A stretch of DNA of 64,000 nt from a virus (IMGVR_UViG_3300046004_001633:36792-100791); one strand, 5' to 3'. Shown: positions 6,374 through 62,098, counted from the first letter of the stretch. Program-made: numbers and translations. The notes: generated by a model from the letters alone, not told the origin.

Positions 6374-6378
6374 TTATG

Positions 6379-34880: not shown

Positions 34881-34885
34881 GAATT

Positions 34886-35503: not shown

Positions 35504-35504
35504 A

Positions 35505-38126: not shown

Positions 38127-38130
38127 AAAT

Positions 38131-38628: not shown

Positions 38629-39479
38629 AACTTAGTAAATATATTTTTAAACAACCAATCTTCTGTTACGGCATATTGTTTTGCTAATTCTAAATTTTCA
38701 TATGCATATTTTAATTTCGATTGATATAATTCTGGGGTAAGTGATGCTAAAATATCATCTAGTTCATCAGCTGAGTTAAAACAAATAAAACCATCAGTGT
38801 TAAAAAACTCTGATATATTTGGACAGCCCCAATATATTGGTATTGTTCCTACAACTAAACAATCTACAATTTTTTCGGTAAAATAATTTAATTGATTAGA
38901 ATTTTCTATTATTATTGAAAACTGATAATCTTGTAATCCATCTTCTTTGTTGATTAATGGTTTTGCAGATCCATGTCCGTAATAATCAATCCCAGATGAT
39001 TGAAATCGATTTGCAATTACGTGTCGTAATCGATGTCCAGTTAATTGTTGTCGTCCAGAGTATATCATCGAAACTAACTTTGTTTTGTTATGCATTTTCC
39101 AATTAGATTCATTAATCCAACAACCGCCAATTGGATACATTTTAGTTTTCTCCGGATAGGTTTTTAATAAGTCAGGATCATGGGTTAGTACAAAATCATA
39201 ATGATCTTTATATTGATCGAACGTATTATAAAAATGAGGATGTAATTCTCGAGACTCCATTAACCAACCAATCTTGTATTTACTATTAATTCTCGTAGCA
39301 ATTCCTGAATTTATAAAACTGTCAGTAAATAATGTAATTCCTTGCCAATTACTTTGATTTTTTACATATGTTGTGTAGTTTGTGCTTTTAGAGAAAACGT
39401 GTGAATATTTGCCATCTAGTGTCACTAAATGATCAAATGCCGTATCAAATAAATTAATTTCCATAATTATGTTATTCAT
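38625..39479 (-). CDS. glycosyltransferase, GT10-like (fucosyltransferase-like)
   Basis: FSIIIENSNQLNYFTEKIVDCLVVGTIPIYWG resembles the alpha-1,3-FucT FENS...YxTEK...G.VPIYxG motif. Confidence 0.45.
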   Translation of the reverse strand: MNNIIMEINLFDTAFDHLVTLDGKYSHVFSKSTNYTTYVKNQSNWQGITLFTDSFINSGIATRINSKYKIGWLMESRELHPHFYNTFDQYKDHYDFVLTHDPDLLKTYPEKTKMYPIGGCWINESNWKMHNKTKLVSMIYSGRQQLTGHRLRHVIANRFQSSGIDYYGHGSAKPLINKEDGLQDYQFSIIIENSNQLNYFTEKIVDCLVVGTIPIYWGCPNISEFFNTDGFICFNSADELDDILASLTPELYQSKLKYAYENLELAKQYAVTEDWLFKNIFTKL

Positions 39480-40272
39480 TAATACATACCCAATTTTCTG
39501 GGAACATATCTATTGTTGATAAATTATTAACAGTTGCCGGACCAAACCATCGATTGGGATATATTACTGTTTTAGTTGGATTACAATTAAGCCATGCGCC
39601 CCACCAACTAAATGTAGAATTTGCTATGATATTATGTTTGCACAAAGACATCAAGTATAAATCTTCTATATCAGATTGCGATTCTATGAATATATAATTA
39701 TTTCCGACAAACATGGTTTTACACCAATCTATATCATCACTGAATACTAAATACTTTGTTCCTGTTGAAAATTGTTTCACTGCATTTAAGTAATATGAAA
39801 TAGATAAATTATGATGAAAATCTGATAATGTTAAATAGTCGCCTCGACGTATATGCAATGAAACAGTATTTTCTTGTAATACTGGATATTTGTTATTTAA
39901 TTTAGTTAATACAATATTATTTGGTGCAAATAATTTTTGTATTTCGCTATTAAAATCGTGAAAATATTTATAAGATTGATAATATCCATGTAATATAATA
40001 TTAGATGTAATATTGACAATAGGCGTATATCGAAAACTTGGTTCGTGAAATTCAATTAGATTATGGTTATGAGTATATGGGATAAGTTTATTAAAAATTG
40101 TATCTAGATAATCACTCGGTGGTTTTGGTCTTGAATGTCCATGACCAATTTCTGTATATTGTGTGTTAATTAAATATTCAGCTCCGCTTCTTTTTGATAA
40201 TGAATATCCAGCAGCAACCTGAAATAACATATTACCTAATCCGCCCATTAATTTTGAAGTAATTATATTCAT
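39472..40272 (-). CDS. glycosyltransferase family 11 (alpha-1,2-fucosyltransferase-like)
   Basis: GGLGNMLFQVAAGYSL and HIRRGDY GT11 motifs. Confidence 0.65.
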   Translation of the reverse strand: MNIITSKLMGGLGNMLFQVAAGYSLSKRSGAEYLINTQYTEIGHGHSRPKPPSDYLDTIFNKLIPYTHNHNLIEFHEPSFRYTPIVNITSNIILHGYYQSYKYFHDFNSEIQKLFAPNNIVLTKLNNKYPVLQENTVSLHIRRGDYLTLSDFHHNLSISYYLNAVKQFSTGTKYLVFSDDIDWCKTMFVGNNYIFIESQSDIEDLYLMSLCKHNIIANSTFSWWGAWLNCNPTKTVIYPNRWFGPATVNNLSTIDMFPENWVCINE

Positions 40273-40892
40273 AGTGTGTTATAATAATTATTTTGTCGTA
40301 TTTGTCGTTCTATTGTCTTTGCATGATACAATGAATACGATTCTTCCATTGGTAATTGTGCAAATGTTTGAATACCAGTTAACTTTTCGTGTACCTTGTT
40401 CTCCCACTGAATCGACGGATGATTCTTATAGATTCTTCCTTGCCAATCCGGCCAATTAATCCAACCCTCACTATTAACACGCCATCCCCACTTTTTAATG
40501 TGGTCTGCAGTTAGATCAGAAACCGTGTTAACTCTTGGCACCCATATCATATCAACGCCGTCATTTGCACTTAATATAGCAGGTAAGGCTTCTATAATAG
40601 GAGTACATGGAATTTCATCTGCATCTATTTGGAATATATAATCTCCGGTGCAAAGTCTAGTTAATTTATTTTTCCAATCCGCAAAGTTTCCTTCGAATTT
40701 ACCTTTATGCCATGCAAACTCTCCATTAATGGAATGCGATCTTAAAAATGCTTCGATTTCAGAATCTCCATTTGTTTCATCATATAAAACCGTAATTGAG
40801 TCTTGAGCTCTTTTATGTTTTAAAAGAAATGCAATGAGTCTCTGTATTTCCATGAACTCATTGCATACTGTAATTGCGTAACTTATCTTCAT
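40269..40892 (-). CDS. glycosyltransferase family 2
   Basis: KISYAITVCNEFMEIQRLIAF N-terminus, DADE. Confidence 0.5.
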   Translation of the reverse strand: MKISYAITVCNEFMEIQRLIAFLLKHKRAQDSITVLYDETNGDSEIEAFLRSHSINGEFAWHKGKFEGNFADWKNKLTRLCTGDYIFQIDADEIPCTPIIEALPAILSANDGVDMIWVPRVNTVSDLTADHIKKWGWRVNSEGWINWPDWQGRIYKNHPSIQWENKVHEKLTGIQTFAQLPMEESYSLYHAKTIERQIRQNNYYNTL

Positions 40893-40921
40893 ACTATATT
40901 ATAATGAATTTAATTGATAAA

Positions 40922-42172
40922 TCAAATCTTTTGAAGCTTAGGTAAAGATAGAGTTGGTAATTTCAATTCAACTGATTTAGGAATACTAGTTAATCCGCCA
41001 TCAACAATACTCAATACAGTTTCATATGTTTTTGCAATTGCCGTACGAGTAAATGCAGTATTCACAAAGTATCGTTGGCGCTTACCTAACTCTAACCAAG
41101 TTTTATAATTCTTAATAACTTCTTGCATCATCTTACCGGCATATCCATAATCAACACTAAACCACTTTGCATCGCCAATTAAGAATTGATTTTGTGCTGT
41201 TGCGTGTATTGGTGATAATGTTCCTGGAAGTGCACATATGAAATCCTTCTTAAGGAAGTCTGCTTGTCCTGAATAATGTGGTGCTAGGATAGGTTTACCG
41301 GTTGTTGCAAATTCTAATAGAGGTCTTCCAAATCCTTCTGCTTTAGTAAATGATACCATTGCTTTAACTTTGGAATGATTATACAATGCATTCATTTCAT
41401 CATCAGATAATTCGCCATGAATCAAATATACATTTGGTAATTTAGCTTTGCCGAACATTGCTCCAACTTGATTGATCTTTCCTTCAATTTCCATGCGATC
41501 CATAACACTATATGTTGCTCCGGAGCATTTCATAATTAAAGCAGGTTGATTCTTTGTGTCCTTAAATGTATTAAAGAAACAATGCACCATACCTCCGATA
41601 TTTTTTCGGTCTTCCCCTACTTGGCCTTGCAACCAATGTCCAACTGATAGAAATGCCCATGATTCTGGTATTTCATCTAATTGAGCTATCGGTTCTTTAA
41701 TTTCAGAGGTAGTATACACTGATTCATCGAAATATTCAGGTATCACTTGCAAGTTGCATGTAATTGCTTTATCATGCTTCTTAGCTGTCTCTACAAACAC
41801 TGATTTTGTAAACTCACTAGGAACAATTACTAGGTGCATTGCATTTAGGTTATCGATCCAGTCTACTGGGCAGATATCACCTTCGGTACCTGCTGTTACT
41901 CCAATATTGTATTTTCCTACTGCTTGGAATTCATTTGGCACTGATATTTGAACCCAAACATCTGGTTGTTCCGTTAACGGTAATGGAATTATTCTTAACT
42001 GTAAATCCGTTGAAATTGGATATGTCATTGGGGTATGTCCCCATGGCAATGAAACTAATTTAACATCCCATTCAGAACCTCGTTGTTCTATAATGTTTGT
42101 AATAACTTCTCTTGCATGATGTCCGTAACCTGATTGTGTTGCTACTGGACTGGCTATAACTACTTTTCTCAT
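40922..42172 (-). CDS. glycosyltransferase, GT-B fold
   Basis: 416 aa. C-terminal KAEGFGRPLLEFATTGKPILAPHYSG is an EX7E-like GT4 motif. Confidence 0.5.
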   Translation of the reverse strand: MRKVVIASPVATQSGYGHHAREVITNIIEQRGSEWDVKLVSLPWGHTPMTYPISTDLQLRIIPLPLTEQPDVWVQISVPNEFQAVGKYNIGVTAGTEGDICPVDWIDNLNAMHLVIVPSEFTKSVFVETAKKHDKAITCNLQVIPEYFDESVYTTSEIKEPIAQLDEIPESWAFLSVGHWLQGQVGEDRKNIGGMVHCFFNTFKDTKNQPALIMKCSGATYSVMDRMEIEGKINQVGAMFGKAKLPNVYLIHGELSDDEMNALYNHSKVKAMVSFTKAEGFGRPLLEFATTGKPILAPHYSGQADFLKKDFICALPGTLSPIHATAQNQFLIGDAKWFSVDYGYAGKMMQEVIKNYKTWLELGKRQRYFVNTAFTRTAIAKTYETVLSIVDGGLTSIPKSVELKLPTLSLPKLQKI

Positions 42173-43662
42173 TCTGCTACTATTCCTGTTCGTTCATATT
42201 TTACTGGTTCAACTTTATTTACTGTGAATAAAGGTCTTCTTTCTCTATGCATTGCAAATAAATCATTAAACATGGAAATCATTTTGTTACCCATCTTCTC
42301 GGCAGTTAATCCATTAGCTAAAGCCCATTGTCGGCCTTCAAAACCACAAGCAGCCCTATTTTCTTCTGTCATGTCCCACCACGATCTTAATGCGGCTGCT
42401 ACATCTTCATATTTAACTCGGTCATCAAAGATATATGGTGTTTGGGGTGATCCTTGAAGGCTTCGGTTGCTAGGAAATACTGGTTTAACCCAAGATCCAT
42501 GTTTCTTGTATTTACCGGTGTGATTCGTTGCAAATTCTCCATCAAATCGAAGCCATTCGCCATTCTCATCTTCAAAGCCACATTGATCTTGTAAACCACC
42601 AGTAACATTGTTAACGATTGGCGTTCCTGCAAGAATGGCTTCTGTTGAACTAAGTCCCCAACCTTCGTTGCTTCCAATATTCACAACTACATCAGCAACA
42701 TTATACATTGCATTAAGATCCGGTGCTGACAGCTTTTGTTCTGAGAATATAATTTTACAATTGGGCGCCAATGTTTTCCATACTGCAATTAGATCCGTTC
42801 CGTTTTCATCTACTGGTTGTGTATGCATTAATAATGCTACACGGTCTTGTTGATCTGCTGGTAACCTATCTACGAATGTTTTGAATGCTAATATCAAATC
42901 GCCTGGCTGTTTTCTTCTAATATTGCGATTATTCCACATTACTATGAAATCAACCTTATTTGTTTCTTTGATTTGTTTTAACATTGAAACATGTAATGGA
43001 TCACTTGATGATAATGGTTTGAATATGTTGTGATTCAATCCGTGAGGAACATAACCTGTTATAATATCATTCCATTTCTTATCCATCGGCAATGTATCTG
43101 ATTCATCATAGTTAATTACGCCAAAACCATTCTGTTTAAGCACTTCTCTATGAATATTGTCTGACTGTTTGCTTATTCCCATAATCATATCGCAACTACC
43201 GTAAAAAGGTGCGTTCCACATTGGATAAGGTAGGTCATCCCAAATAGAGTAATATGTAATAGGAATTCCGAATGTAGTTTTAATTTCGTGTTCAATTGCA
43301 TACAACCAAGTCCAGTAACGAGGATCTGTAAAGTGTAGGATTGCATCTGGCTGTTCTTGATTGATAATAGCAAATAAGATATTTCTATCGCCATATCCAT
43401 TCCATGGAATCAACTTAACTGATGCATCTTCAATTCCAGTCTCTCGAATAATATCCTGAGATAAATCAAATGCTTGTCCTGCGTCTGGATGATTTAATGC
43501 TCCGCCTAATTGAACCCAATCAAATTCTTTAACGGTATTCAAAATGATTTCTTTGCTGACCGTTCCGATTCCAGATGGTAATCTAAAATCATCGCCTAAA
43601 AGAAGTATTTTCTTTTTTTGTGGCTTGTTGGGGTCAATTTTTTGTAACTTTGGTAACTCCAT
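42169..43662 (-). CDS. glycosyltransferase, GT4-like
   Basis: 497 aa. NEGWGLSSTEAILAGTPIV GT1/GT4 signature. Confidence 0.55.
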   Translation of the reverse strand: MELPKLQKIDPNKPQKKKILLLGDDFRLPSGIGTVSKEIILNTVKEFDWVQLGGALNHPDAGQAFDLSQDIIRETGIEDASVKLIPWNGYGDRNILFAIINQEQPDAILHFTDPRYWTWLYAIEHEIKTTFGIPITYYSIWDDLPYPMWNAPFYGSCDMIMGISKQSDNIHREVLKQNGFGVINYDESDTLPMDKKWNDIITGYVPHGLNHNIFKPLSSSDPLHVSMLKQIKETNKVDFIVMWNNRNIRRKQPGDLILAFKTFVDRLPADQQDRVALLMHTQPVDENGTDLIAVWKTLAPNCKIIFSEQKLSAPDLNAMYNVADVVVNIGSNEGWGLSSTEAILAGTPIVNNVTGGLQDQCGFEDENGEWLRFDGEFATNHTGKYKKHGSWVKPVFPSNRSLQGSPQTPYIFDDRVKYEDVAAALRSWWDMTEENRAACGFEGRQWALANGLTAEKMGNKMISMFNDLFAMHRERRPLFTVNKVEPVKYERTGIVAE

Positions 43663-51610: not shown

Positions 51611-52861
51611 TTAAAATTTAAAAAATTCGTTGAATTTGTGAGCATCAGTGGTAGATATACTATCTCCGCCAAATTTCTTGTATGTTTTCTTGTATGTTTC
51701 ATATACGTGCATTGCGTTGTCTGGATCTGCGAACATATCGTGTAATGATAGGATAACATTGAATAATTCACTTGGTATTGCGGTTTCTAACAATTCTACG
51801 TGACTATCAACTAGCTTATCAACATCCTTTGCCATATTAACATAAAGATGTGTATTATGCACAACCATTCTAGGCATTCCTTCTTGTGAATTGCGACACA
51901 ATCCTTCTGGAGTCTGTCCCCCTAGGTATTCATATGTGAAATCTCTACAAGCTGGGCAATCTATACTGCATGGTACATGTTTTGACTTATCAATTTCAAT
52001 AGTTGATTTACCTTGACGAGCATGCGACTTTCTTCGATATTCAGCATTCTTAGGAAAATACAATTCCGTAAAGGTTTGCGTTTTATAATTAGTTGAATGA
52101 AGATATGTTCCATATACCGGATATTGACCTGGGGAAGAAGAATCTGTGGATAATTGAACTCTACCGCCTGTTAAGTCATTTAATAACTTTTGCAGGGTGG
52201 ATAGAATAAAGAAATCCGATATTTTAGATATTCCTAAAAGGTGAATAAACTCTACATGTTTCTTTTCAAATTCTCGTTCTTGAAGCATTAATGCAATAAC
52301 ATACATAAAGTCTACTAACCGTTTAGGTCCGCCAATACACCAACCATTAAAGGCAAAGTCTTTGAACTTGTGATACCAAGTATTATATTCTTCATTGTAT
52401 GTTCCTTGTATTACATTGAGGAACTTAGTTTTACCACTTTGATGAGTTTCAAACCATTTAAAGTTATCAAAACTAATATCCATTGAATCTTGGAATCGAT
52501 TTTCAAATGTAACCCGTGGTGGAATATCCAAGTTAGCTGCCACATCACTGTTTGCTTCTAACCAATGAAAGATCTTTTCTCGGATAGTTGTATCCCATTT
52601 CAATGCACCAGTTGCAATCTGGAATCCTCCGGAATCACCAAATACCAATACTTCATCATCTAAGCCCATTTGCTGGCGGAAGTCCATCTTCTTGTAATGA
52701 TGCCCTGCGGTGATTAGAAAATACGGGTGTCTCCATTCTTCTGGATATTCCTTTGAGAAGAATCTCATAGTTGTACCGTCTGAGAACTTGGTATCCTTCT
52801 TAAATGCAGATACCATACTCCCGGCTGATAAACTCGGATAGTATATAAACTTTTTACTCAT
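51611..52861 (-). CDS. dpdA: DpdA-like 7-deazaguanine DNA transglycosylase (TGT family)
   Basis: VFGDSGGFQ (TGT catalytic Asp motif) and Zn site CSIDCPACRD...H. Genome also carries folE, queD and queE. Confidence 0.65.
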   Translation of the reverse strand: MSKKFIYYPSLSAGSMVSAFKKDTKFSDGTTMRFFSKEYPEEWRHPYFLITAGHHYKKMDFRQQMGLDDEVLVFGDSGGFQIATGALKWDTTIREKIFHWLEANSDVAANLDIPPRVTFENRFQDSMDISFDNFKWFETHQSGKTKFLNVIQGTYNEEYNTWYHKFKDFAFNGWCIGGPKRLVDFMYVIALMLQEREFEKKHVEFIHLLGISKISDFFILSTLQKLLNDLTGGRVQLSTDSSSPGQYPVYGTYLHSTNYKTQTFTELYFPKNAEYRRKSHARQGKSTIEIDKSKHVPCSIDCPACRDFTYEYLGGQTPEGLCRNSQEGMPRMVVHNTHLYVNMAKDVDKLVDSHVELLETAIPSELFNVILSLHDMFADPDNAMHVYETYKKTYKKFGGDSISTTDAHKFNEFFKF

Positions 52862-54050
52862 TGTAACCTTGTTGTTTTAATAAATACTTGCAATATTCTA
52901 ATTCGTGCCAAACATTAATTTCTTGTTGCATATCATTAGCAATTATATATGCTTCCATTTGTCGACCGTAATCTGCAATTGCTGCAAAGTTATAATCTCG
53001 TGTATATTCTTCATCGCATACCACTGTTAATGTATATACCGCATCTTTTACCGAAAATGGTGTATACATTCGATCTGCCGGAATAAATTCTGGGAATGAT
53101 CTAAAATTTGGAAATACTACATCACATCCGAATGCCGTAGATTCCAATACGGTCCATGATACATAGTCTTGAAGTGAACTATTGAATTGAACTTTAGCAG
53201 TTGCTAATTCATAGTAATATTCTTCTTTTGTTAGATTAGCTAACAATTTAAATCTAGGAACGCGCGCTGCTAATGCCGTCATTGCTTCAATCACACCAGG
53301 AACCATTGATTTAAATGATTTACCGGAAGTTGTCACGTGCCACACATAATCTGGATTATCACTTAAAAATAGCTCAGCTACTTCAAGCATAAAGAACGGA
53401 TTCTTTTCTTTGTCTAGACGACTAGAATATACCACTTTGTTTTGCTTTTTAATCAAACCATGTTGTAATGCATCAGAATAATTAGGCAATTTAGCTAAAG
53501 TCATATCTAAATGCAATGGCAATGACACAACATGAATTGGAGCATTAAATCCAGCTTCTCGTAATTGTTCTTTATGAATAGTAGATCCCACAAATATACC
53601 TGTCATTCGGTTATCTAGTCCCAATTCATAATGACGCATCCATTGACGCATAGGCCAAGTAAAATCATATTCATCAACACTTTGTGCATGAAGCATTGCA
53701 TAAACTTTAACTTGGATACCATATAAATCTAATGCATACCAAATTGCATCCATACCTGGAGTCCAATAATCTTGCAAGAAGATTACATCGCCATCCTTAA
53801 CCTGATCGGTATTGATCATATCTAAGAAATTGCTACACTGACTCATAGCAAATTTACCTCGGCCAACGGCATCTAATACAGCTCCAACTTTAATTTGCTG
53901 GTCTGGATCAAATTCTCCTGGAATATCAATAAATTCTAATTCGCCGGCCGTTTCGTATGGAGCAAATGTTGCTGGCATCCATTCCTTACTCAATTGGTAA
54001 GTATATCGAGCTTTAAGGGGCTCGAGCCCAAAGTAAAATACTTTTCTCAT
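52854..54050 (-). CDS. GT-B-fold glycosyltransferase-like protein adjacent to dpdA
   Basis: YSSRLDKEKNPFFMLEVAELF and ESTAFGCDVVFPN resemble GT4 R/K-pocket and EX7E regions. Function unknown. Confidence 0.35.
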   Translation of the reverse strand: MRKVFYFGLEPLKARYTYQLSKEWMPATFAPYETAGELEFIDIPGEFDPDQQIKVGAVLDAVGRGKFAMSQCSNFLDMINTDQVKDGDVIFLQDYWTPGMDAIWYALDLYGIQVKVYAMLHAQSVDEYDFTWPMRQWMRHYELGLDNRMTGIFVGSTIHKEQLREAGFNAPIHVVSLPLHLDMTLAKLPNYSDALQHGLIKKQNKVVYSSRLDKEKNPFFMLEVAELFLSDNPDYVWHVTTSGKSFKSMVPGVIEAMTALAARVPRFKLLANLTKEEYYYELATAKVQFNSSLQDYVSWTVLESTAFGCDVVFPNFRSFPEFIPADRMYTPFSVKDAVYTLTVVCDEEYTRDYNFAAIADYGRQMEAYIIANDMQQEINVWHELEYCKYLLKQQGYNE

Positions 54051-54051
54051 A

Positions 54052-54414
54052 TTAAAATTCTTTGCTTCTTTTAATTACTGCTCCATTTTCCCAATCTTCC
54101 CAAACTTCTACTTTGTATAAAGCCGGGAATTCTTCTAATAACCATTCTCCGATCATTTCACACGACATTGCATCAAATTCCAAAACACTAGTTAATTCTC
54201 TGGAAAATTGATTTCTAAGCCCTTTTTGAATTTTACGATTCAATAAAATAAATTCTTCATCTCTGTCAGTATGAGTTACTTTAGCATAACAACGAAATCC
54301 AAACATATGACGATGTCTATCTGCGAGGAATGCTACTTCTGGAAATACTTCTTTGGCATCTGGCCAACAATGAAACCCTTCAATACTAAAACTAACTATT
54401 ATACTATATTTCAT
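54052..54414 (-). CDS. PTPS/QueD-like T-fold protein (second paralogue)
   Basis: FHCWPD...ADRHRHMFGF resembles the Cys...H-x-H Zn site of 6-pyruvoyl-tetrahydropterin synthase-like proteins. Confidence 0.35.
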   Translation of the reverse strand: MKYSIIVSFSIEGFHCWPDAKEVFPEVAFLADRHRHMFGFRCYAKVTHTDRDEEFILLNRKIQKGLRNQFSRELTSVLEFDAMSCEMIGEWLLEEFPALYKVEVWEDWENGAVIKRSKEF

Positions 54415-55040
54415 ACTTTATTTATTTTTTTTAGTTGTTGCCTTTTTGTCTGAGCGGCTTGCATTTTAATAATAGTCTCATTTGAAAATATTCTACCCTT
54501 CAAGGTATCAGCTCTTTTTTGATTTGATTCAGCTGTTTGAATTTTTCCTAAATGAGCTTCTCTATTTTTTTGTTTAGATTCCACTGTATGTGATTTGCCT
54601 AACATTGGTGATGGCTTATCTAAATGGGCTTCTCTATTTTTTTGTTTAGATTCCACTGTATGTATTCTTTGTTTACTAGCTTCTCCAATTTTACGTTTAT
54701 GTTCTGCCGATAATTTCCTACTACTCATTTTTTTAGCAAATATACATTTAACACGTTCATATTCTCTCGATGATATTTTATAATTTCGTATCATATTTGC
54801 AGATCCTTGTTTATTACACATTGCCCAATAAGCATAAAATAATTTATCATTATCTGGGTACATTTCAACAAGTAATTTATGTACTATAAAATGTTGTCGA
54901 GCTGTTAGTTTAACTAAATTTTCTTTATCATTAGTACCACCCATACATTTAGGAATAATATGATGTTTTTCGCTATACCCTAATAATTTTTGATTATGGG
55001 CTATAGCAATAATAGAATCATGTATTCTTTGGTAATTCAT
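54411..55040 (-). CDS. HNH homing endonuclease with NUMOD3 repeats
   Basis: HHIIPKCMGGTNDKENLVKLTARQHFIVH HNH core. Tandem HTVESKQKNREAHL-type NUMOD3 units. Confidence 0.7.
   Translation of the reverse strand: MNYQRIHDSIIAIAHNQKLLGYSEKHHIIPKCMGGTNDKENLVKLTARQHFIVHKLLVEMYPDNDKLFYAYWAMCNKQGSANMIRNYKISSREYERVKCIFAKKMSSRKLSAEHKRKIGEASKQRIHTVESKQKNREAHLDKPSPMLGKSHTVESKQKNREAHLGKIQTAESNQKRADTLKGRIFSNETIIKMQAAQTKRQQLKKINKV
54555..54675. repeat. direct ~72-bp DNA repeat encoding NUMOD3 units
   Basis: ttctctatttttttgtttagattccactgtatgt occurs twice, about 72 bp apart. Confidence 0.55.
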
Positions 55041-55438
55041 ATTAAACTATTTGCTATTAATTGTTTGTATTTAGTGGTCGACCAACCATGGTCTCTGTTT
55101 AGATAGTGAATTGGAATATTCAAATCGTCGCCGGTAAATGGCTTATCTATATAATCATCTCCTAGGAATCTTACATCGAGTTTACCTTTTGCTAAAGCCT
55201 CATATAACTCAGCCTCAGTTTGATATAAAAATATAAAATCTACTTGCTTGAGTGATCCTAATATTTTATAACGATCGCTCCAATGTAAAATTGGCTTTAA
55301 TTTTTCAGGTCTTTCAAGACTTGGATCTTCGTGTAGACAAACTATAAGATAATCACAATGCTTTTTACATTCAGTAAACATTGCAATATATCCCGGATGA
55401 ATAACATCAAAGTTACCTGCTATAACGCCACGCTTCAT
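55037..55438 (-). CDS. cytidylyltransferase-like nucleotidyltransferase (HxGH family)
   Basis: GVIAGNFDVIHPGYIAMF matches the G-x-FD-x-x-H-x-G-H motif of glycerol-3-P cytidylyltransferase / RfaE-II / PPAT-type enzymes. Confidence 0.55.
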   Translation of the reverse strand: MKRGVIAGNFDVIHPGYIAMFTECKKHCDYLIVCLHEDPSLERPEKLKPILHWSDRYKILGSLKQVDFIFLYQTEAELYEALAKGKLDVRFLGDDYIDKPFTGDDLNIPIHYLNRDHGWSTTKYKQLIANSLI

Positions 55439-55875
55439 AGTTCTTCATCAAATTTATATGAGTCGGGGGTTGTTTCTTGCATATGCATCTTAGCAATCAT
55501 ATGACAACGATACCAACCAGCATCTATACTCACTGTATCGGTTGCTTTTAGCAGTTGTAATGCGTCATCCTGAATTCTATAAATAATGTGGCATCGATTA
55601 ACCAAATCAGTGGAAATGCCCTTTAAAGTAGCTTTATTGGCTTCTATTGTTACTACTGCGTGTGTGGTATCTAATATTTCGCGGATTGCTTTGAAATGCT
55701 TACTATCTTTAGATTCAATCATGGAAGCGATATACTCAATAGTGAAATAATAATGAGGATATTCGTTAAGATCATCTACATTAATTCCTTCTCCATATTC
55801 TCTAATAAATAGAGTCATCATATCAGTGTAGCGGCCTTCTACTTCTCTTCCGCGCCATTGTTGTTTTCCGTACAT
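55435..55875 (-). CDS. hypothetical protein
   Basis: 146 aa. Confidence 0.45.
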   Translation of the reverse strand: MYGKQQWRGREVEGRYTDMMTLFIREYGEGINVDDLNEYPHYYFTIEYIASMIESKDSKHFKAIREILDTTHAVVTIEANKATLKGISTDLVNRCHIIYRIQDDALQLLKATDTVSIDAGWYRCHMIAKMHMQETTPDSYKFDEEL

Positions 55876-55920
55876 ATAACTTTTTTATTTAATATAATGA
55901 ATTTATTTCTATTATCCAAA
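55876..55920 (-). promoter_or_regulatory. sigma70-like promoter TTGGAT-N17-TATATT
   Basis: Minus strand TTGGAT (55919..55914), 17-nt spacer, TATATT (55896..55891). Between the DNA polymerase stop and the next gene. Confidence 0.5.
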
Positions 55921-58422
55921 TGAAAAGAATTTCTTCGCGTTATTATTTTCTGGTAAACTTCCCCAACTCATTGCGGCATAAAAGTCATTGAACTTGTTGC
56001 TTAAGTCACTTACGAACATTTTGTTATGATCCAAGTATTTTGCAGCAAAGTCAACTATTTCAACCGGATCTCGGTAACCACGAAGTGCCATAGTTTCAAA
56101 CCCATATGGATTATTCAACAAGTAACCCCATTTAATTTTTTCACCATTTGATATAGGTAATATATCACCAGTTAATGTGGTTAACATATCATTAAAGTTA
56201 ATTGCTGCTTTAGCGTGTGCGGTAGTTCCTTTAATAAATCCGGTGAATGGCTTACGACCTCTAATGTATTTCGATAGTTCTTTAACACTGGAATTCTTCA
56301 TTACATTGAGTACTTCTGAACTTCTTATATTAGATTTAAAGTTATGTATTAAGGTGGATGTATCCTGTTTGTTTCTACCTTTAAGAATATACCACAATGT
56401 TTCCTTCATTATCTTTTTGAAATCTTCTGGGAAACTAGATCTTACAACATCTAGGCCTTTAATATCCAATTTATCCGTAGGTTTACCTTCTTTGAAAATA
56501 ACCCACTGAGCATAACGTTTCTTTGCAATCCATAAACCAGATTTAGCAATATATTCTTGCTTAATTTGAAATCTATGAGATGCTGTATTATGGAATACTA
56601 AGGAATATTGATTGTACATGTTATTTACATGTTTTTGTATCTCAGAAGCAATTGCATTGGTTTGTTCAATCATGAATTGTTCATCCTCTATATCACATCC
56701 AGGGAATCGGTGTTGAATCAAAGGTAAACTGCTACAAAACGTTGAATCTGTATCTGTGTAGAATGCAAACTCTGCTTTGTCGCCGCTAGCATTAATAAAA
56801 TGGTCTGTTCCTAGTTCTTTTTCATAGTACTTGTTAATAACTTTTGCTGAGAACTTAATTACACTTTGACCGACAGCTGTAATAGCGCCGGCATTATCTA
56901 GGTCATAGAATCGGAAAGTCTTTAATCCTAATACTCCATAAAATGAATTAAGCAATACTTTTTGAGTTAATTGCAATGCATCATAGAATTTATAATCTTC
57001 TGTTCCAACTTCAAATGTATCTCGCTTATCTTTAAAGATAACACGTTCATTAAACCACTTTTCTAGAATGGTTGGTAAGAATCCTCGTTTATCATTTCGA
57101 TACACTACGCCATTACTAGTAACTGAATAATTATTATCTTGTAGCCACTGTTTGATATTTTGTGCATAGGTGCCGTCAGTGAATTGTACTTGAGTTGATG
57201 TTGGTTTTAATAAGCATTCCTGATTCCAATCTTTTATGATTGCTACTTTAGTTTCTGGAGATATATTAGCAGTCATAATGATACTAGGATACAAGGAAGT
57301 TAAATCTAAATCATAGATCCATTTATACAATCCAGGTATCGGTGGCATTACATATGCTCCTGCTAGAGATTCGTCATTCTCATCTTCTACAAACCGAAAT
57401 TGTTTATTTGGAGCAACGAATCCGTTTCTCTTAAGATCTACAATTGCGGCTCCATCCAAATATTTAGATGCATAGTATACGTCCTCATATGGTACGTGAC
57501 CTTTATGGCATATAGATCGGGCTAGATTCAATAATTGAAGCTTTTCATCCATTTCCTCAATTAAATCAACATCCGTCATATTGTAATAAGCAAACTTATG
57601 AATGTCTTGAGTAAACAATGTATCTAAATCGCCATCATATTCGACTTTACCTCGACCTAGTTCCTTTTTAGCAACAGTGTCTAATCGATAATTTGGTAGT
57701 TCTGTATATGTGAAGTTTTTATACAATTTAATGTAATCTAAACTAGATACTCCAAAGATTTTCCATTTCCCGGTCTTTGTGTTTTGATTAACAATACCAG
57801 CTGGCGAGAATTTCTTAATTGATTGAGCTCCTAATACTTTTTTGCATCGACCCATCATATATGGGATATCATATCCATCAGTGTTCCAACCAGTAATTAC
57901 TGTGGGTCTAATCTCTGCAAATTTATTAATGAATCTAGTTAATAGGGCTTTCTCAGTTCGGAATATTTCTAAAACATAGTTTTCACCCTGTATTTCTGTT
58001 TCTTTTATTCGACCTTGTTCATCTAGTATTAATACTCGACGATCTTTAGTGGCTTTATCAAAATATGCAATAGAAGTAATGGCTGTTCGAACATCATCAA
58101 TAGTACTATACCCATTTTCATCTTTAGCCGTTTCAATATCAAAGAAGAAGTCTCTGTGACCTTTAGATGGTTCATCTGATTCATAGTATAAATCAATAAG
58201 TGTGCGTACTTCTTCATTTAAATCTGATTCGAATGATTTATGGTTATCTCGATGATTCCCCGGAACCTTTTTAAGTCTAATTCCATCTAATGATTGAAAT
58301 TGCCCATTATCATCCGGAAGATATCCATATGGTTTAAATGTAAATTGTTGATGTCCTAACTCATCGTCCCAAACATGCATTGTTTCGGTTTTCTTATCAT
58401 AACCGATTGATTGATATGCCAT
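55912..58422 (-). CDS. DNA polymerase, family B (T4 gp43-like)
   Basis: Exo I FFFDIETA, motif A DLTSLYPSII, motif B KVLLNSFYG, motif C FYTDTDS. Confidence 0.9.
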   Translation of the reverse strand: MAYQSIGYDKKTETMHVWDDELGHQQFTFKPYGYLPDDNGQFQSLDGIRLKKVPGNHRDNHKSFESDLNEEVRTLIDLYYESDEPSKGHRDFFFDIETAKDENGYSTIDDVRTAITSIAYFDKATKDRRVLILDEQGRIKETEIQGENYVLEIFRTEKALLTRFINKFAEIRPTVITGWNTDGYDIPYMMGRCKKVLGAQSIKKFSPAGIVNQNTKTGKWKIFGVSSLDYIKLYKNFTYTELPNYRLDTVAKKELGRGKVEYDGDLDTLFTQDIHKFAYYNMTDVDLIEEMDEKLQLLNLARSICHKGHVPYEDVYYASKYLDGAAIVDLKRNGFVAPNKQFRFVEDENDESLAGAYVMPPIPGLYKWIYDLDLTSLYPSIIMTANISPETKVAIIKDWNQECLLKPTSTQVQFTDGTYAQNIKQWLQDNNYSVTSNGVVYRNDKRGFLPTILEKWFNERVIFKDKRDTFEVGTEDYKFYDALQLTQKVLLNSFYGVLGLKTFRFYDLDNAGAITAVGQSVIKFSAKVINKYYEKELGTDHFINASGDKAEFAFYTDTDSTFCSSLPLIQHRFPGCDIEDEQFMIEQTNAIASEIQKHVNNMYNQYSLVFHNTASHRFQIKQEYIAKSGLWIAKKRYAQWVIFKEGKPTDKLDIKGLDVVRSSFPEDFKKIMKETLWYILKGRNKQDTSTLIHNFKSNIRSSEVLNVMKNSSVKELSKYIRGRKPFTGFIKGTTAHAKAAINFNDMLTTLTGDILPISNGEKIKWGYLLNNPYGFETMALRGYRDPVEIVDFAAKYLDHNKMFVSDLSNKFNDFYAAMSWGSLPENNNAKKFFSFG

Positions 58423-58427
58423 TATTT

Positions 58428-58937
58428 TTAATTAATTTTATAAATATCTTGTAAATTTCGTTTAAGTCCGTAATCATCTAATCCATAGCCTAATACCCAT
58501 TCATCACCTATTTCAAAGCCATGAAAATCAGTCATACCAACACCATTTTTACGTTTTAACAAGGTAACAACTTTAACTTCAGCAGCCATTCGACTATTTA
58601 CCATAAATAATGCTTCTAACATTGTAGCTCCTGAATCGCAAATATCATCTATGATATATACTCGCTTTCCTTTAAGATCTAATTCTAAATCTTTGATTCG
58701 ATCAATGCCGCCGGAGTTATCTTGTCCTTCATATGATTTAAGTCGAATAAAATCAACTTCACAATCTATACTCATCTGTCTAGTTAAATCAGAAAAGAAA
58801 TGGAATGCTCCATTTAGCACACAAATTAGTACCGGCGGTAAAGGAGTCTTACTGTTAATCTGATGATCCGTTGATATTTGTTCAGCTAGTTCTTGTACTC
58901 GCTGACGTATTTCGTCTTGTCTGATGATGATTTCCAT
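58428..58937 (-). CDS. hpt: hypoxanthine-guanine phosphoribosyltransferase
   Basis: PRPP-binding VYIIDDICDSGATM, 169 aa. Confidence 0.75.
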   Translation of the reverse strand: MEIIIRQDEIRQRVQELAEQISTDHQINSKTPLPPVLICVLNGAFHFFSDLTRQMSIDCEVDFIRLKSYEGQDNSGGIDRIKDLELDLKGKRVYIIDDICDSGATMLEALFMVNSRMAAEVKVVTLLKRKNGVGMTDFHGFEIGDEWVLGYGLDDYGLKRNLQDIYKIN

Positions 58938-58959
58938 AACCTGTATATTTTACACTTAA

Positions 58960-59265
58960 TCAATCGTTTTGTTGAATCATAGCAATTTCAGATTCGCGAA
59001 TTAACACGAATACATCATCGCCAATTACAACTTCTTTGTGTGATCCTAAATTATTGCGACTTACAAGCACTTTGTTTCCAACTTTAACTGTTACTGGGAT
59101 TCTATCACCTGTGTGTGTAAATAACCCGTCTCCGGTTGCATATACTTCAGCATTAACGAAATTGTCGTTGCTATCCATAATGATAATTCCGCTTCTGGTA
59201 CGATCACTTTTTACTTCGTCTAATTCTTTAAGGAGTACTTGATCTCCAATTGGTTTCCAATTCAT
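58960..59265 (-). CDS. groS: co-chaperonin GroES (Hsp10)
   Basis: KPIGDQVLLK...GIIIMD...VYATGDG...VKVGNKVLV...VVIGDDVFVLIRESEI aligns along full length with GroES. Confidence 0.8.
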   Translation of the reverse strand: MNWKPIGDQVLLKELDEVKSDRTRSGIIIMDSNDNFVNAEVYATGDGLFTHTGDRIPVTVKVGNKVLVSRNNLGSHKEVVIGDDVFVLIRESEIAMIQQND

Positions 59266-59278
59266 AACTTGTTTCTAT

Positions 59279-59527
59279 TTATTGTTTATATAATCTTCGT
59301 ATTTCTGATTCGCTAATTGCGGATCCTACTAATCTGCCTTGTTCTCGTGAATTACTAACTATCAATACCGTTGGGACATTTCGTATATTCCATGTTTGTG
59401 CTGATTGATAACTTACATCGGTATCAATTGATACGATTGTCATTTCTCCCTGAAGTCGTTGCATCATTGGTTTTAGTGCAGCACACGGAGCACAACTAGG
59501 TGCGTGAAAGTATAATACTTGTTTCAT
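59279..59527 (-). CDS. thioredoxin-like protein
   Basis: APSCAPCAAL contains a CxxC redox motif in thioredoxin context. 82 aa. Confidence 0.65.
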   Translation of the reverse strand: MKQVLYFHAPSCAPCAALKPMMQRLQGEMTIVSIDTDVSYQSAQTWNIRNVPTVLIVSNSREQGRLVGSAISESEIRRLYKQ

Positions 59528-59581
59528 CGTATAATATAATTAATTTGGTAATCGCCAAAGGTTGTTGTTACTGTATACATA

Positions 59582-60355
59582 TTATACTCCTCTTTTTGTG
59601 TCGAATGCGATAATGTGGTCTCTACCTGTCATGTTATAGCCATGTTCCGCACACATATCAAATACCAATGGATACATTTCAATCAATGTTTCTCTGGTGT
59701 CGCCTGCTGGCATTATGTATGTTTTGCTTTTAGGGATAAACATTTTTACTCGGAAATCTTCTATTTCTTGTAAATTTTCTGCAGTGCCGTCCCAGACTGG
59801 TTTATAATGGTAATCTGTATGAAATTCAATCATTGAAGCAATTGCCTCATAGTTTAATCTGAATTTTTCATGCTGCCGAACCATTTTCTCATCCACCACC
59901 ATTTTTTGCGGTGTAATAGCACCCACAACGGGAATGCTATTGCGAAACTTAGGACTAAGGCTAATGAGCCCAATAGGATAGTCAGTTTCAACAAAATGTG
60001 AACCTTCAGTCTCAATAGTAATAAGAATGTCTCTTTCATAAGCAAATCGTGTAAGTTCATTTACCAATGCTGGATGCATTGTCGGAGAACCTCCCGTTAA
60101 CATCATTTCTTTGATATGCGGGTTACTATCATAAATATTGATAATATCATTAAACGTGAAAGTTCCTTTTTCTGGGTGTATACTTGTATACCATGAATCA
60201 CACCATCCACCCTCGCCAAAATAACATCGGTGTGTGCATCCGGTAGTTCTAATTGCTATTGTAGGTCTACCGAATCTGCTTCCTTCTGATTGCACGCATC
60301 GATATACTTCGATAATTGGAAGTGTTTTATTGTAATCTTCTATTCTTTTTCTCAT
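59582..60355 (-). CDS. queE: 7-carboxy-7-deazaguanine synthase QueE (radical SAM)
   Basis: LPIIEVYRCVQSEGSRFGRPTIAIRTTGCTHRCYFGEGGWCDSWYT matches the QueE N-terminal cluster and substrate region. MLTGGSP matches the SAM-binding motif. Confidence 0.65.
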   Translation of the reverse strand: MRKRIEDYNKTLPIIEVYRCVQSEGSRFGRPTIAIRTTGCTHRCYFGEGGWCDSWYTSIHPEKGTFTFNDIINIYDSNPHIKEMMLTGGSPTMHPALVNELTRFAYERDILITIETEGSHFVETDYPIGLISLSPKFRNSIPVVGAITPQKMVVDEKMVRQHEKFRLNYEAIASMIEFHTDYHYKPVWDGTAENLQEIEDFRVKMFIPKSKTYIMPAGDTRETLIEMYPLVFDMCAEHGYNMTGRDHIIAFDTKRGV

Positions 60356-60357
60356 AA

Positions 60358-60717
60358 TTAAAATGGTAAATCGTCATCATCTTCAACTAATTCAGCGGCT
60401 GATTCTGGCAGCTTAAGTAAAAGTGCAACTTGTGTTTCTAACATAGTTACGCGTTCAGTTAATAGTTCTAATTCTGTTTTTGGTTTTACTTCAAAGTATT
60501 CATCCAAAAACGACATTGGATATGTAGCAACTGATGGATATTCTTTTGTCTGTTTATGTTCTGGTAATTGTTCATATACAATATTAATGCCTTTTGCCTT
60601 AGCAGCTGCGTATACCTGTTTACCAATACCAGATATGCGGGTTGGTTGCCCTTTATAATTGTATAGGGATACATATGTTTCATTGTTCATATATACTAGA
60701 ATTATTGTCGTTTTCAA
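60358..60717 (-). CDS. small protein with SSB-type acidic C-terminal tail
   Basis: C-terminus ELVEDDDDLPF resembles the SSB DDDIPF protein-interaction tail. 119 aa. Confidence 0.3.
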   Translation of the reverse strand: MKTTIILVYMNNETYVSLYNYKGQPTRISGIGKQVYAAAKAKGINIVYEQLPEHKQTKEYPSVATYPMSFLDEYFEVKPKTELELLTERVTMLETQVALLLKLPESAAELVEDDDDLPF

Positions 60718-61156
60718 AACATTCTACTTTAATACATTGGCATCGTCCACCATCTGTTTTAGATAATACCTCATTGAACTTATCATAAACTAATTTAGCA
60801 CACGATTCTGCTCCCATTTTAGCCATAACGCGAAGTGCACAAATACCTTCCATTGACATTGTTTCGAATAAATCTAAGTATGGATCATCTTTTTCTATTA
60901 ATAGTGTATGATCCCACATATAATTCATCCAAGATTTTAATCCATTACCTTTAGGTGCATCTTTGAATCCTCCGTAATCAACAATCCAATTCATGTCATC
61001 TAATTGGTTCTCTTCGATGGGTTCATTAGAAGCAAACCATACTTTAAACTTTAAAGCATATCCGTGTAATAACTCGCAATGAGAATGAGATGCTTTATGT
61101 TGTCTAAGTGCTACTGAATAATTTTCAAATAGCTTTGTTGAAATATATCTCGACAT
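60680..61156 (-). CDS. queD: 6-carboxy-5,6,7,8-tetrahydropterin synthase QueD
   Basis: SHSHCELLHGYALKFKV contains the QueD CxxxHGH Zn motif. Confidence 0.7.
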   Translation of the reverse strand: MSRYISTKLFENYSVALRQHKASHSHCELLHGYALKFKVWFASNEPIEENQLDDMNWIVDYGGFKDAPKGNGLKSWMNYMWDHTLLIEKDDPYLDLFETMSMEGICALRVMAKMGAESCAKLVYDKFNEVLSKTDGGRCQCIKVECFENDNNSSIYEQ

Positions 61157-61157
61157 A

Positions 61158-61859
61158 TTAATAACCTTTTACAAATTGATAAAATTCTGATCTTGCATTT
61201 CCGTCATCTAAAAATGCTCCTGATAGTTTTGCTGTTTTCATTGAAGCTCCTTGATGCTTTACGCCGCGGCATGACACACAATTATGAGTTGCTTCAATCA
61301 TTACAGCTACACCTTTAGCTCCTTCAATTAATTCTTCAATTGCATGATGTATAGCAACAGTTAATTGTTCTTGTATTGCACCGCGTCTACCAAAGTGTTC
61401 AACTACTCGATTAATTTTACTTAATCCGATAACATTACCGTTATCTGCTGGAATATATGCAATATGAACTTTTCCTCCGATTGTTTGATGGTGATGTGAA
61501 CACATTGATGTTAATGGAATACCTCCCTCGAACACAATACCATCGTATCCATCACTTGGGAAAGCTGTGATATCTGACATTGATTCATAACGTCCGCGCC
61601 ACAAATCATTTACATATGCTTTTGCTACTCGGTTAGGTGTATTATCTGAATTTGGATCTGATTCCCATGCAACTCCTAAAGCTCGAAGAAATTCTCCGTA
61701 ATAGTATGCTGCATCTGCAATAATAGCTTGTTTTTCTTCTTTAGTCAACTCAGCTTCGGGATCATTTAGCATCGCTCTTTTAGTTGCTAATTGAGTTGAT
61801 ATACCGTTCGCGAAACCAGATTTAACTAGTTCTAGATTTTTCTTTTTCTTATCTGACAT
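61158..61859 (-). CDS. folE: GTP cyclohydrolase I
   Basis: MCSHHHQTIGGKVHIAYIP (CxHH...HxAYIP active-site block) plus typical FolE flanks. Confidence 0.85.
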   Translation of the reverse strand: MSDKKKKNLELVKSGFANGISTQLATKRAMLNDPEAELTKEEKQAIIADAAYYYGEFLRALGVAWESDPNSDNTPNRVAKAYVNDLWRGRYESMSDITAFPSDGYDGIVFEGGIPLTSMCSHHHQTIGGKVHIAYIPADNGNVIGLSKINRVVEHFGRRGAIQEQLTVAIHHAIEELIEGAKGVAVMIEATHNCVSCRGVKHQGASMKTAKLSGAFLDDGNARSEFYQFVKGY

Positions 61860-61894: not shown

Positions 61895-62098
61895 TTATTG
61901 AGATTTCAAAGTTTTTTCATCTTTATTATATGGGCAATGCCTACAACCATTACCACAGCAATGTCCGCGCCGTTCGTGATATGATTCAGTGAATACTCGA
62001 TAACCGTTTTCATAGTAGAAATCTGTAGGAAGGAGCTTGTTTCCAAACTCCCTCACATACAGTTGTTGTACCCAATCTTTAGATGCTGATACTATCAT
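61895..62098 (-). CDS. small Cys-rich protein (C-C-G-N-G-C-R-H-C-P-Y cluster)
   Basis: 67 aa ending ...RGHCCGNGCRHCPYNKDE. 4-nt overlap with nrdJ stop. Confidence 0.4.
   Translation of the reverse strand: MIVSASKDWVQQLYVREFGNKLLPTDFYYENGYRVFTESYHERRGHCCGNGCRHCPYNKDEKTLKSQ

Follow-up and report, generated by a model that had tools for sequence, protein, structure and literature searches.

A probable QueC-independent 7-deazaguanine DNA-modification module of the DpdL type, with a coupled GT-B glycosyltransferase-like gene, in a phage genome

Background

Which base would a phage place in its DNA if it encodes a DpdA-like transglycosylase together with FolE, QueD and QueE, but no QueC? The question is raised by IMGVR_UViG_3300046004_001633:36792-100791, a stretch of 64,000 nucleotides from a phage genome of ~160-170 kb. 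This whole stretch is referred to here as the window, and our statements on queC, queF and arcS cover these 64 kb. An earlier note on this DNA had described a phage gene set for 7-deazaguanine DNA modification in which a DpdA-type transglycosylase is present and QueC is missing, and family matches, protein fold and homology to Cellulophaga phage phiST all agree with that description. The open reading frames (ORFs) named in it are all present where it placed them on the minus strand, which carries all of the window's genes. From the evidence given below, we consider that the locus is probably a 7-deazaguanine DNA-modification module that works without QueC, as in phages of the phiST (DpdL) type.

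Two samples were used for comparison. Phage genomes were searched by tblastn in a set of 50,697, and 80 IMG/VR loci whose TGT-like protein is 57-100% identical to that of the window served as relatives. Where counts among the relatives carry a denominator of 57 or 27, it is the number of loci with enough sequence to cover the gene position concerned.

Pathway enzymes and the absence of QueC

The enzymes presumed to lead from GTP to 7-carboxy-7-deazaguanine (CDG), by way of carboxytetrahydropterin (CPH4), are encoded as follows.

61158-61859, minus strand: FolE, GTP cyclohydrolase I, 233 amino acids (Pfam PF01227, 154 bits; NCBIfam FolE models, ~150 bits)
60680-61156, minus strand: QueD-like T-fold enzyme, 158 amino acids, presumed CPH4 synthase (Pfam PTPS, E 8.5e-11; phrog_2389 'QueD-like', E 2.6e-28)
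59582-60355, minus strand: QueE-like radical-SAM enzyme, 257 amino acids, presumed CDG synthase (phrog_2076 'QueE-like', E 1.3e-45; TIGR03365, E 1.7e-13, under the curated cutoff)

The identification of FolE, QueD and QueE in the earlier note holds, both by these family matches and by homology to phiST, whose FolE, QueD and QueE are 64%, 39% and 62% identical, respectively, to the window proteins. For QueE the similarity extends to the DNA (79% nucleotide identity over 295 nucleotides), and queE of the phiST group is the only nucleotide-level match of the region among the phage genomes. Curated family models are matched less well: the QueD-like protein scores 25.6 bits against a TIGR03367 cutoff of 89, and the best NCBIfam matches of the QueE-like protein are five QueE models, all far under their cutoffs (50.7 vs. 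206 bits). The QueD motif, previously given as CxxxHGH, actually reads C-E-L-L-H-G-Y (CxxxHGY), a variant that is common, by alignment, to the QueD proteins of phiST, Acidovorax phage ACP17 and Synechococcus phage BUCT-ZZ01. Likewise, the cysteine motif read from the QueE-like sequence, C-x3-C-x7-C, is non-canonical for radical-SAM enzymes, as it is in phiST.

QueC was sought in the window in three ways, and all were negative, as the note had claimed for the 64 kb. A motif search in six frames returned a sole SGGxDS, which belongs to a MoxR/CbbQ AAA ATPase and lies at about residue 215 of that protein; the QueC of Vibrio phage nt-1, used as a tblastn query, gave a best E value of only 0.44; and Pfam scans of 60 window ORFs, comprising nearly all of the larger minus-strand ones, detected no QueC, QueF or ArcS. 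The location of the SGGxDS motif in the MoxR protein and the negative tblastn search rule out a QueC hidden in the window. Similarly, none of the 80 relatives has QueC within 10 kb of the module. Since phages of the phiST type, which possess DpdL, also lack QueC, its absence is the expected state of a known pathway type.

DpdL and the predicted base

Cellulophaga phage phiST and the phages phi19:2 and phi13:1 possess FolE, QueD, QueE, DpdL and DpdA3 but no QueC, and their dG is fully replaced by 2'-deoxy-7-deazaguanosine (dDG) (PMC10516641). The DpdL of phiST is a QueD paralog in which CxxxHGH is replaced by LxxxHRHxF, and it was proposed to decarboxylate CDG (Cui, Hutinet et al., NAR 2023, PMC10516641). 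We found a homolog of this protein in the window.

54052-54414, minus strand: DpdL, 120 amino acids, QueD paralog, proposed CDG decarboxylase (homology to phiST DpdL; phrog_17812, E 3.9e-24)

This gene had been listed in the note as a second PTPS-like T-fold protein; it is indeed a T-fold QueD paralog, but its identity as DpdL had not been recognized. The protein is 38% identical to phiST DpdL (CGPG_00067, gp040) over 118 amino acids (E 1e-24), and we counted as DpdL those T-fold proteins of ~115-125 amino acids that are homologous to phiST gp040. It has no Pfam match and is recognized by DpdL homology only. Its motif, FLADRHRHMF, has the form LxxxHRHxF and aligns with the corresponding stretches of phiST, BUCT-ZZ01, ACP17, Sinorhizobium phage Phosso and Chryseobacterium phage MA9V-3. 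When used as a tblastn query against the phage genomes, the window DpdL recovers the dpdL genes of phiST, ACP17 and others. In MA9V-3 (L003:8452-9333), the annotation makes DpdL the C-terminal part of a 293-amino-acid ORF with an HNH-endonuclease-like N-terminal part, which is either a fusion or a mis-called start.

Because phiST, with FolE, QueD, QueE, DpdL and a DpdA and without QueC, carries dDG, we take dDG, rather than dCDG (the deoxynucleoside of CDG), as the leading prediction for the base of the window phage. The earlier note had favored dCDG if queC were truly absent, a preference that the presence of DpdL now reverses. For dCDG to be the product, DpdL would have to be something other than a decarboxylase here and the transglycosylase would have to insert CDG. 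Without QueC, the canonical enzymes lead no further than CDG, and there is precedent in STSV-2, where dCDG is found, and in the DpdA2 of VH7D, which can insert CDG, although with low efficiency (PMC10516641). Moreover, one lineage of relatives (L089 and L091, with TGT-like proteins 57-58% identical to that of the window) has no DpdL within 10 kb yet retains FolE, QueD, QueE, an HGPRT-like gene, the glycosyltransferase (GT) gene described below and the DpdA-like gene; the product of that lineage may differ, e.g. dCDG or a GT-dependent derivative. However, the window and 51 of 53 relatives do have DpdL, and in phiST, equipped with the same enzymes, dDG was measured while dCDG was not detected (PMC10516641). 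It therefore seems very improbable that the window phage makes dCDG.

The similarity of the window to phiST goes beyond the shared FolE, QueD, QueE and DpdL set, as it includes the QueD (HGY) and QueE cysteine-motif variants and the location of the cluster next to a replicative polymerase. The two loci differ in that the polymerase is PolIII alpha in phiST and PolB in the window, and in that phiST has no homolog of the window's GT-B gene, in whose place it carries a P-loop kinase-like gene and MazG. The DpdA3 of phiST, at 259 amino acids, also has no sequence relation to the window transglycosylase. The P-loop protein (gp041, L001:9545-10042) is encoded between DpdA3 and DpdL and weakly matches the kinase domain of polynucleotide kinase-phosphatase (E 2.7e-4).

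The transglycosylase

51611-52861, minus strand: TGT-superfamily transglycosylase, DpdA-like, 416 amino acids, PA5oct-type clade (TGT fold, invariant catalytic Asp residues)

The Pfam match of this protein to TGT is marginal (26.5 bits vs. a cutoff of 26.3). Its AlphaFold2 (AF2) model (pLDDT 91.9, pTM 0.91) was compared to the PDB with Foldseek, and the top 18 matches were all TGT, arcTGT, QTRT1 or the Salmonella DpdA 7ui4, with a probability of 1.0. A profile of the protein family also matches arcTGT 1iq8 (E 3e-5), with the zinc stretch aligned to the arcTGT zinc motif. The intact DSGGFQ and Cys3-His zinc motifs that the note had reported can both be read in the sequence, the former at residues 76-81. 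We aligned 60 homologs (21-47% identity) drawn from a metagenomic family of 772 clusters at 50% identity. D76, S77, G78, G79, D112 and D240 are invariant among them, and F80, four residues after D76, is F, Y or H across the family. The zinc ligands C298, C302, C305 and H335 are all present in the window protein; H335 is found in 58 of the 60 homologs and the cysteines in 40-41. In Salmonella DpdA, D95, D130, D256 and F99 are essential (PMC10164549), and mapping by motif suggests that D76, D112, D240 and F80 are their counterparts.

Judged by its sequence, the enzyme appears to fall outside the characterized phage DpdA subfamilies. Only 22 records among the phage genomes were matched by tblastn, namely those of the PA5oct group, Phosso, ~200-kb P. 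putida phages and Vibrio phage 2.275.O, and no prototype phage of DpdA1-4 was among them. The protein matched no PHROG family, and a literature search returned no report of a DpdA5. Identity with DpdA3, the phiST enzyme, is ruled out by BLASTP (no match) and hhalign (0.8%). The resemblance to DpdA2 is remote, as hhalign values of 95-97% with the enzymes of nt-1, ACP17 and BUCT-ZZ01 apply to ~180 barrel-core columns only, and tblastn with nt-1 DpdA2 found nothing. The separation from DpdA1 and DpdA4 rests on the tblastn search of phage genomes, the prototypes not having been aligned directly.

Among cultured phages, a full-length homolog by hhalign was found only in the PA5oct group, as EST35_0316 of PA5oct and its kin (99.95%, E 5.6e-38). 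PA5oct is a Pseudomonas jumbo phage (Wroclawvirus) in which EST35_0316-0318 form a trio in the order DpdA-like, GT, DpdL, with QueE ~3 kb downstream. All three genes are annotated as hypothetical. PA5oct DNA was reported to carry modified G (PMC12191111). Unlike the window enzyme, the PA5oct transglycosylase has 540 amino acids with large insertions and is ~25% identical, and the PA5oct GT is of a short subtype, ~22% identical to that of the window (21.6% by tblastn, 22% by BLASTP). The DpdA of Salmonella Montevideo (7UI4) resembles the window enzyme in its TGT-type barrel and zinc subdomain, and its three aspartates, the first of which is followed four positions later by an aromatic residue. 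However, it has no sequence match with the family profile at E <= 1 and a Foldseek TM-score of ~0.49, and it inserts preQ0 and needs the DpdB ATPase, while the window set contains no DpdB or DpdC.

The fold alone cannot separate DNA from tRNA specificity, and the assignment of a DNA substrate would rest on gene context. Indeed, the model is as near to tRNA TGTs as it is to DpdA, 7ui4 ranking 14th among the Foldseek matches, and the window encodes an array of 17 tRNAs (3993-6560, minus strand), among them His(GTG), Asn(GTT) and Tyr(GTA). tRNAs for His, Asn and Tyr with GUN anticodons are the classical position-34 substrates of TGTs. The TGT-like enzyme might accordingly be one that modifies phage or host tRNA instead of DNA. 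However, bacterial tRNA TGTs insert preQ1, which requires QueC and QueF, neither of which was found in the window, and the gene set matches that of phages with proven DNA modification (phiST). A DNA substrate is favored because the gene is co-located with DpdL, FolE, QueD and QueE inside the replication block, between the sliding clamp and PolB, and because the DNA of PA5oct, the phage with the closest cultured homolog, is restriction-resistant. Of the alternatives weighed here, a tRNA target is the one we find least credible.

A coupled glycosyltransferase-like partner

52854-54050, minus strand: GT-B fold glycosyltransferase-like protein, 398 amino acids (weak GT4/GT1 Pfam matches, under the gathering scores)

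Stop and start codons overlap in tight packing from PolB through the DpdA-like gene. The GT gene starts 1 nucleotide past the DpdL stop, shares 8 nucleotides at its 3' end with the beginning of the DpdA-like (TGT-like) gene and is translationally coupled to the latter. A GT homolog adjoins the DpdA-like gene in 57 of 57 relatives. The earlier note had mentioned a GT-B-like protein clustered with dpdA, and both the fold and the clustering are borne out, but the partnership is far tighter than was implied. The AF2 model of the GT (pLDDT 85.5) has 361 PDB matches at E <= 1e-3, and the nearest solved folds are those of retaining GT-B enzymes with small acceptors, i.e. OtsA/Tps, MshA, BshA, TarM and sucrose-phosphate synthase. 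The closest named viral model is that of the ACP17 homolog. Alongside this fold match, the first E of the GT4 E-x7-E motif is replaced (Q294/D295).

The GT occurs in two subtypes that swap at one position in close relatives, 31 of which have the long and 26 the short form. The long subtype has 388-398 amino acids (window, BUCT-ZZ01) and the short one 340-363 (ACP17, PA5oct, Phosso). Common to both are E10, R15-Y16-T17, D88, D94, D126, D129, R211, E215, K216, Q294 and E303. Full-length GT homologs were found by tblastn in 18 records of the phage genomes, all 18 of which also possess DpdL, while 11 of 29 DpdL-bearing records, phiST included, have no GT. In ACP17, BUCT-ZZ01, the PA5oct group and Phosso, the GT gene directly neighbors DpdL and/or DpdA and touches or overlaps one of them, and it lies within ~3 kb of one or the other in Xanthomonas phages X1 and BUDD and Burkholderia phage BCSR5. 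Among phages with DpdA2, the GT is found only where DpdL is present, and the Vibrio and Stenotrophomonas phages that have QueC lack it. Since the GT is found only with DpdL, while DpdL also occurs without the GT, it would seem to be an optional enzyme for the DpdL step or a later one. By these sequence comparisons, it appears to be a previously undescribed conserved partner enzyme of the transglycosylase. In the literature searched there was no paper linking a glycosyltransferase to 7-deazaguanine DNA, and the word stem 'glycosyl' is absent from the phiST paper (PMC10516641).

ACP17, BUCT-ZZ01, X1 and BUDD resemble the window in having FolE, QueD, QueE and DpdL as well as a homologous GT-B gene, but their transglycosylase is DpdA2; for ACP17 this assignment is inferred from tblastn, in which its enzyme is ~34-36% identical to those of nt-1 and VH7D. 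The GT of BUCT-ZZ01 is 37.5% identical to that of the window. The failed heterologous expression of the ACP17 pathway used DpdL and DpdA2 without the GT (PMC10516641).

It is tempting to speculate that the final base is a 7-deazaguanine bearing a sugar, with the GT-B enzyme taking the sugar from a nucleotide-sugar donor and attaching it either to the free base or to dDG in DNA, e.g. at the electron-rich C7. The invariable coupling of the GT to the transglycosylase gene among the relatives, its contact with DpdA or DpdL in cultured phages and its distribution relative to DpdL, which is that of an optional downstream enzyme, are consistent with this idea. The same is true of the conservation of R211, K216 and E303, which are of the donor-binding type, across the GT family, and of the interchange of the long and short subtypes at one position. 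A second GT on the other side of BUCT-ZZ01 DpdA2, a sugar epimerase/dehydratase gene next to the GT in relatives from Tara Oceans and a heptose-1-P-adenylyltransferase-like gene in some relatives point in the same direction, and in another phage system a cytidylyltransferase and a GT-B enzyme make heptosyl-5-hydroxymethylcytosine (heptosyl-5hmC) (bioRxiv 10.1101/2023.12.21.572611). However, dDG has no hydroxyl or amino handle at C7, a glycosylated 7-deazaguanine in DNA has not been reported in the literature searched, and phiST makes dDG without such a GT. The nearest folds use small phospho-sugar or acid acceptors, the T4 alpha- and beta-GT are not among the top matches, and the first residue of the E-x7-E motif is Q or D. 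On balance, a sugar-bearing base is a possibility worth stating, although we doubt it more than we believe it.

The comparison with 5hmC DNA glycosyltransferases is of limited extent. The window protein shares the GT-B fold with T4 alpha- and beta-GT and the heptosyl-5hmC pathway, and some relatives of the window combine the GT with a small heptose-1-P nucleotidyltransferase-like gene, as in the latter (bioRxiv 10.1101/2023.12.21.572611). Unlike those systems, the window has no 5hmC-forming enzyme. Its ThyA homolog scores as a true thymidylate synthase (TIGR03284, 308 bits), which rules it out as a dCMP/dUMP hydroxymethylase that would give the GT a handle. In addition, the window GT is nearest to retaining GT4/GT20-like folds and not to T4 beta-GT, and its genomic partner is a guanine, not a cytosine, pathway.

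Several loci contain further genes around a GT of this family. In BUCT-ZZ01, a second, GT1-like gene encoding 447 amino acids (L004:17010-18353) lies directly upstream of DpdA2, such that the DpdA2-DpdL pair is flanked by two GT genes, and a xanthine/guanine phosphoribosyltransferase (PRTase) is encoded between QueE and QueD. Two Tara Oceans contigs, L093 (192 kb) and L094 (245 kb), carry a BUCT-type GT, 75% identical, whose neighbors are FolE, QueE, a PRTase and an NAD epimerase/dehydratase; DpdL is encoded 6 kb upstream. A DAO-type FAD oxidoreductase, a radical-SAM/SPASM-like protein and a cytochrome-b-like membrane protein are encoded in the same region. No TGT-like gene was found within 7 kb on these contigs, and two of their proteins, of 412 and 441 amino acids, were ruled out as TGT-like upon examination. 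The BUCT-type GT has at least 7,988 homologs in the protein collection.

Proposed pathway

In the pathway we propose, FolE would convert GTP to dihydroneopterin triphosphate (H2NTP), as its homology and the established preQ0 pathway suggest. The QueD-like enzyme would then convert H2NTP to CPH4, and the QueE-like enzyme would convert CPH4 to CDG; both steps are predicted from homology to phiST and from the established pathway. According to the published proposal (PMC10516641), DpdL would remove the carboxyl group of CDG and yield the free base 7-deazaguanine. The TGT-fold enzyme, as its fold, invariant residues and context suggest, would excise guanine from replicated DNA and insert the deaza base by the same mechanism as TGT and DpdA, a double displacement with an Asp nucleophile. 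The outcome would be the replacement of dG by dDG and a DNA that resists restriction enzymes with G in their site. Most likely, the GT acts at or after the DpdL step, and the final base is dDG or a GT-dependent derivative of it.

A number of points weigh against this assignment of the locus. The base of the window phage is predicted from genes, and the substrate (DNA or tRNA) and base specificity of the TGT-like enzyme are ones we infer, because it falls outside every characterized DpdA subfamily. The QueD (HGY) and QueE (C-x3-C-x7-C) motifs depart from those of the canonical enzymes. The decarboxylation of CDG by DpdL is a published proposal that has never been reconstituted, even for the prototype: expression of phiST or ACP17 dpdL with their own dpdA in E. 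coli gave no dDG (PMC10516641). Moreover, dDG has been measured only in phages that have DpdA3 (PMC10516641) and no GT homolog, and the GT-bearing phages ACP17, BUCT-ZZ01 and PA5oct have no published base identity. Finally, with 64 kb of a ~160-170-kb genome examined, a distant queC is possible.

Accessory and neighboring genes

The earlier note had placed hpt, trx and groES among queE, queD and folE, and matches to HGPRT-like, thioredoxin and Cpn10 (GroES) families confirm this interleaving. The first of these may have a supporting role in the pathway.

58428-58937, minus strand: HGPRT-like purine PRTase, 169 amino acids, accessory (PF00156, 85 bits; TIGR01203, 142 bits vs. a cutoff of 150)

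Where present, the HGPRT-like enzyme may turn the released guanine into GMP and thence GTP, the pathway's own precursor. The gene was found in 15 of 27 relatives, which rules it out as a core member of the module; a purine PRTase is also encoded in the BUCT-ZZ01 and Tara Oceans clusters.

A more central role for this enzyme can be imagined if modification preceded replication. It would then ribophosphorylate CDG or 7-deazaguanine, kinases and RTPR would carry the product on to 7-deaza-dGTP, PolB would incorporate it, and the TGT-like enzyme would patch residual G. The HGPRT-like gene does lie between the pathway genes and PolB, a triphosphate reductase of the RTPR type flanks FolE, and purine PRTases recur in the clusters just mentioned. 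The phiST cluster, for its part, holds MazG and the P-loop kinase-like gene, and its full replacement of dG is easier to picture before replication. However, 12 of 27 relatives lack the HGPRT-like gene but have otherwise kept the module, and the catalytic residues of the transglycosylase are intact in 60 diverse homologs from the 772-cluster family. No dGTP-specific pyrophosphatase was found in the window, where the sole enzyme detected that hydrolyzes deoxynucleoside triphosphates is dUTPase, and the published model for all 7-deazaguanines is post-replicative (PMC10516641). A pre-replicative route thus seems unlikely, and we continue to favor insertion by the transglycosylase into replicated DNA.

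Other ORFs lie within or beside the module.

60358-60717, minus strand: small ORF between QueD and QueE, 119 amino acids from a TTG start (130-136 amino acids in relatives), conserved position
55435-55875, minus strand: conserved ORF, 146 amino acids, between PolB and the DpdL/GT/DpdA block, conserved position
55037-55438, minus strand: small nucleotidyltransferase, 133 amino acids, RfaE domain II/TagD-like, accessory (PF01467 (CTP_transf_like), E 7e-10; TIGR02199, E 1.3e-14; phrog_7878, E 1.9e-33)
54411-55040, minus strand: HNH/NUMOD3 homing endonuclease in which a NUMOD3-like peptide is duplicated, located between DpdL and the nucleotidyltransferase gene

The first two have no family match in Pfam, NCBIfam or PHROG scans. 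An ORF occupies the position of the 119-amino-acid one in four relatives (L008-L011), and tblastn matches to it were found in 12 of the 80 loci. The 146-amino-acid ORF is present in 51 of 80 relatives, always at the same position, and hhalign ruled it out as a cryptic DpdL. The nucleotidyltransferase had been described as an HxGH cytidylyltransferase-like protein clustered with dpdA. Its family assignment stands, but the motif reads HPGY. Only 20 of 48 relatives have the gene, and it is missing even from L008 and L010, whose TGT-like protein is 94% identical to that of the window, which rules it out as a conserved core partner. The enzyme could make an activated sugar donor. The HNH/NUMOD3 gene was ruled out as part of the system, being a mobile insertion that only 4 of 80 relatives carry. 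Ordinary neighbors in the replication block are thioredoxin, GroES, PolB and the RTPR-like class II ribonucleotide reductase that flanks FolE. Between that reductase and FolE, a Cys-rich DUF5522 protein of 67 amino acids is encoded at 61895-62098, a position that is kept in relatives.

Other features of the window

The guanine-plus-cytosine (GC) content of the window is ~35%, falling to 29-31% between 30 and 40 kb. This dip corresponds to a low-GC island of approximately 14 kb (29417-43662, minus strand; 29-31% GC vs. ~35% elsewhere) with 16 consecutive genes, 15 of which have family matches in glycan biosynthesis and one of which has no match. The families are GT2, RgpF, GT4, GT25, GDP-mannose 4,6-dehydratase, DegT aminotransferase, FkbM methyltransferase, epimerase/dehydratase, a split transketolase, a dTDP-4-dehydrorhamnose 3,5-epimerase-like protein, GT10, GT11 and two GT1. 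A variant of the island is present in relatives. Its target could be the virion, the host surface or DNA.

A full-length GroEL of the bacterial type is encoded at 12724-14346 (TIGR02348, 832 bits), separate from GroES at 58960-59265. The thymidylate synthase (7286-8515) has 409 amino acids and is matched by ThyA models in two or three stretches, which indicates an internal insertion. The MoxR/CbbQ-type AAA ATPase (16570-17340) forms a gene pair with a 687-amino-acid protein that has a CobT-like VWA domain (14398-16461), and a SegE-like gene of the GIY-YIG homing-endonuclease type is located at 17366-18058.

Conclusions

The module of the window is probably a DpdL-type dDG system that differs from the prototype by its transglycosylase, which belongs to the PA5oct-type clade, and by its coupled GT-B partner. 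The QueC-less route to 7-deazaguanine DNA was known from one phage group, with its enzymology unproven, and it is now tied to an unclassified transglycosylase clade. That clade, with its 772 metagenomic clusters at 50% identity, is found in widespread aquatic phages of ~160-170 kb.

The GT-B gene is adjacent to DpdL or DpdA, or near one of them, in seven unrelated phage lineages, and we tentatively suggest, as something that may well prove otherwise, that its product acts on the product of DpdL to give a glycosylated 7-deazaguanine in DNA. If so, the base would occur in PA5oct, ACP17, BUCT-ZZ01 and an uncultured aquatic clade of very large size, and a purine decorated with a sugar would be known from a genome for the first time. 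The reconstitution of the ACP17 pathway would then have failed for lack of the GT, as the 'unknown enzyme'. Depending on the role of the GT, either the dDG pathway would be completed or DNA hypermodification of a new class would come to light, and either outcome bears on how such phages evade restriction, CRISPR and glycosylases, as well as on the sequencing bias that affects them.

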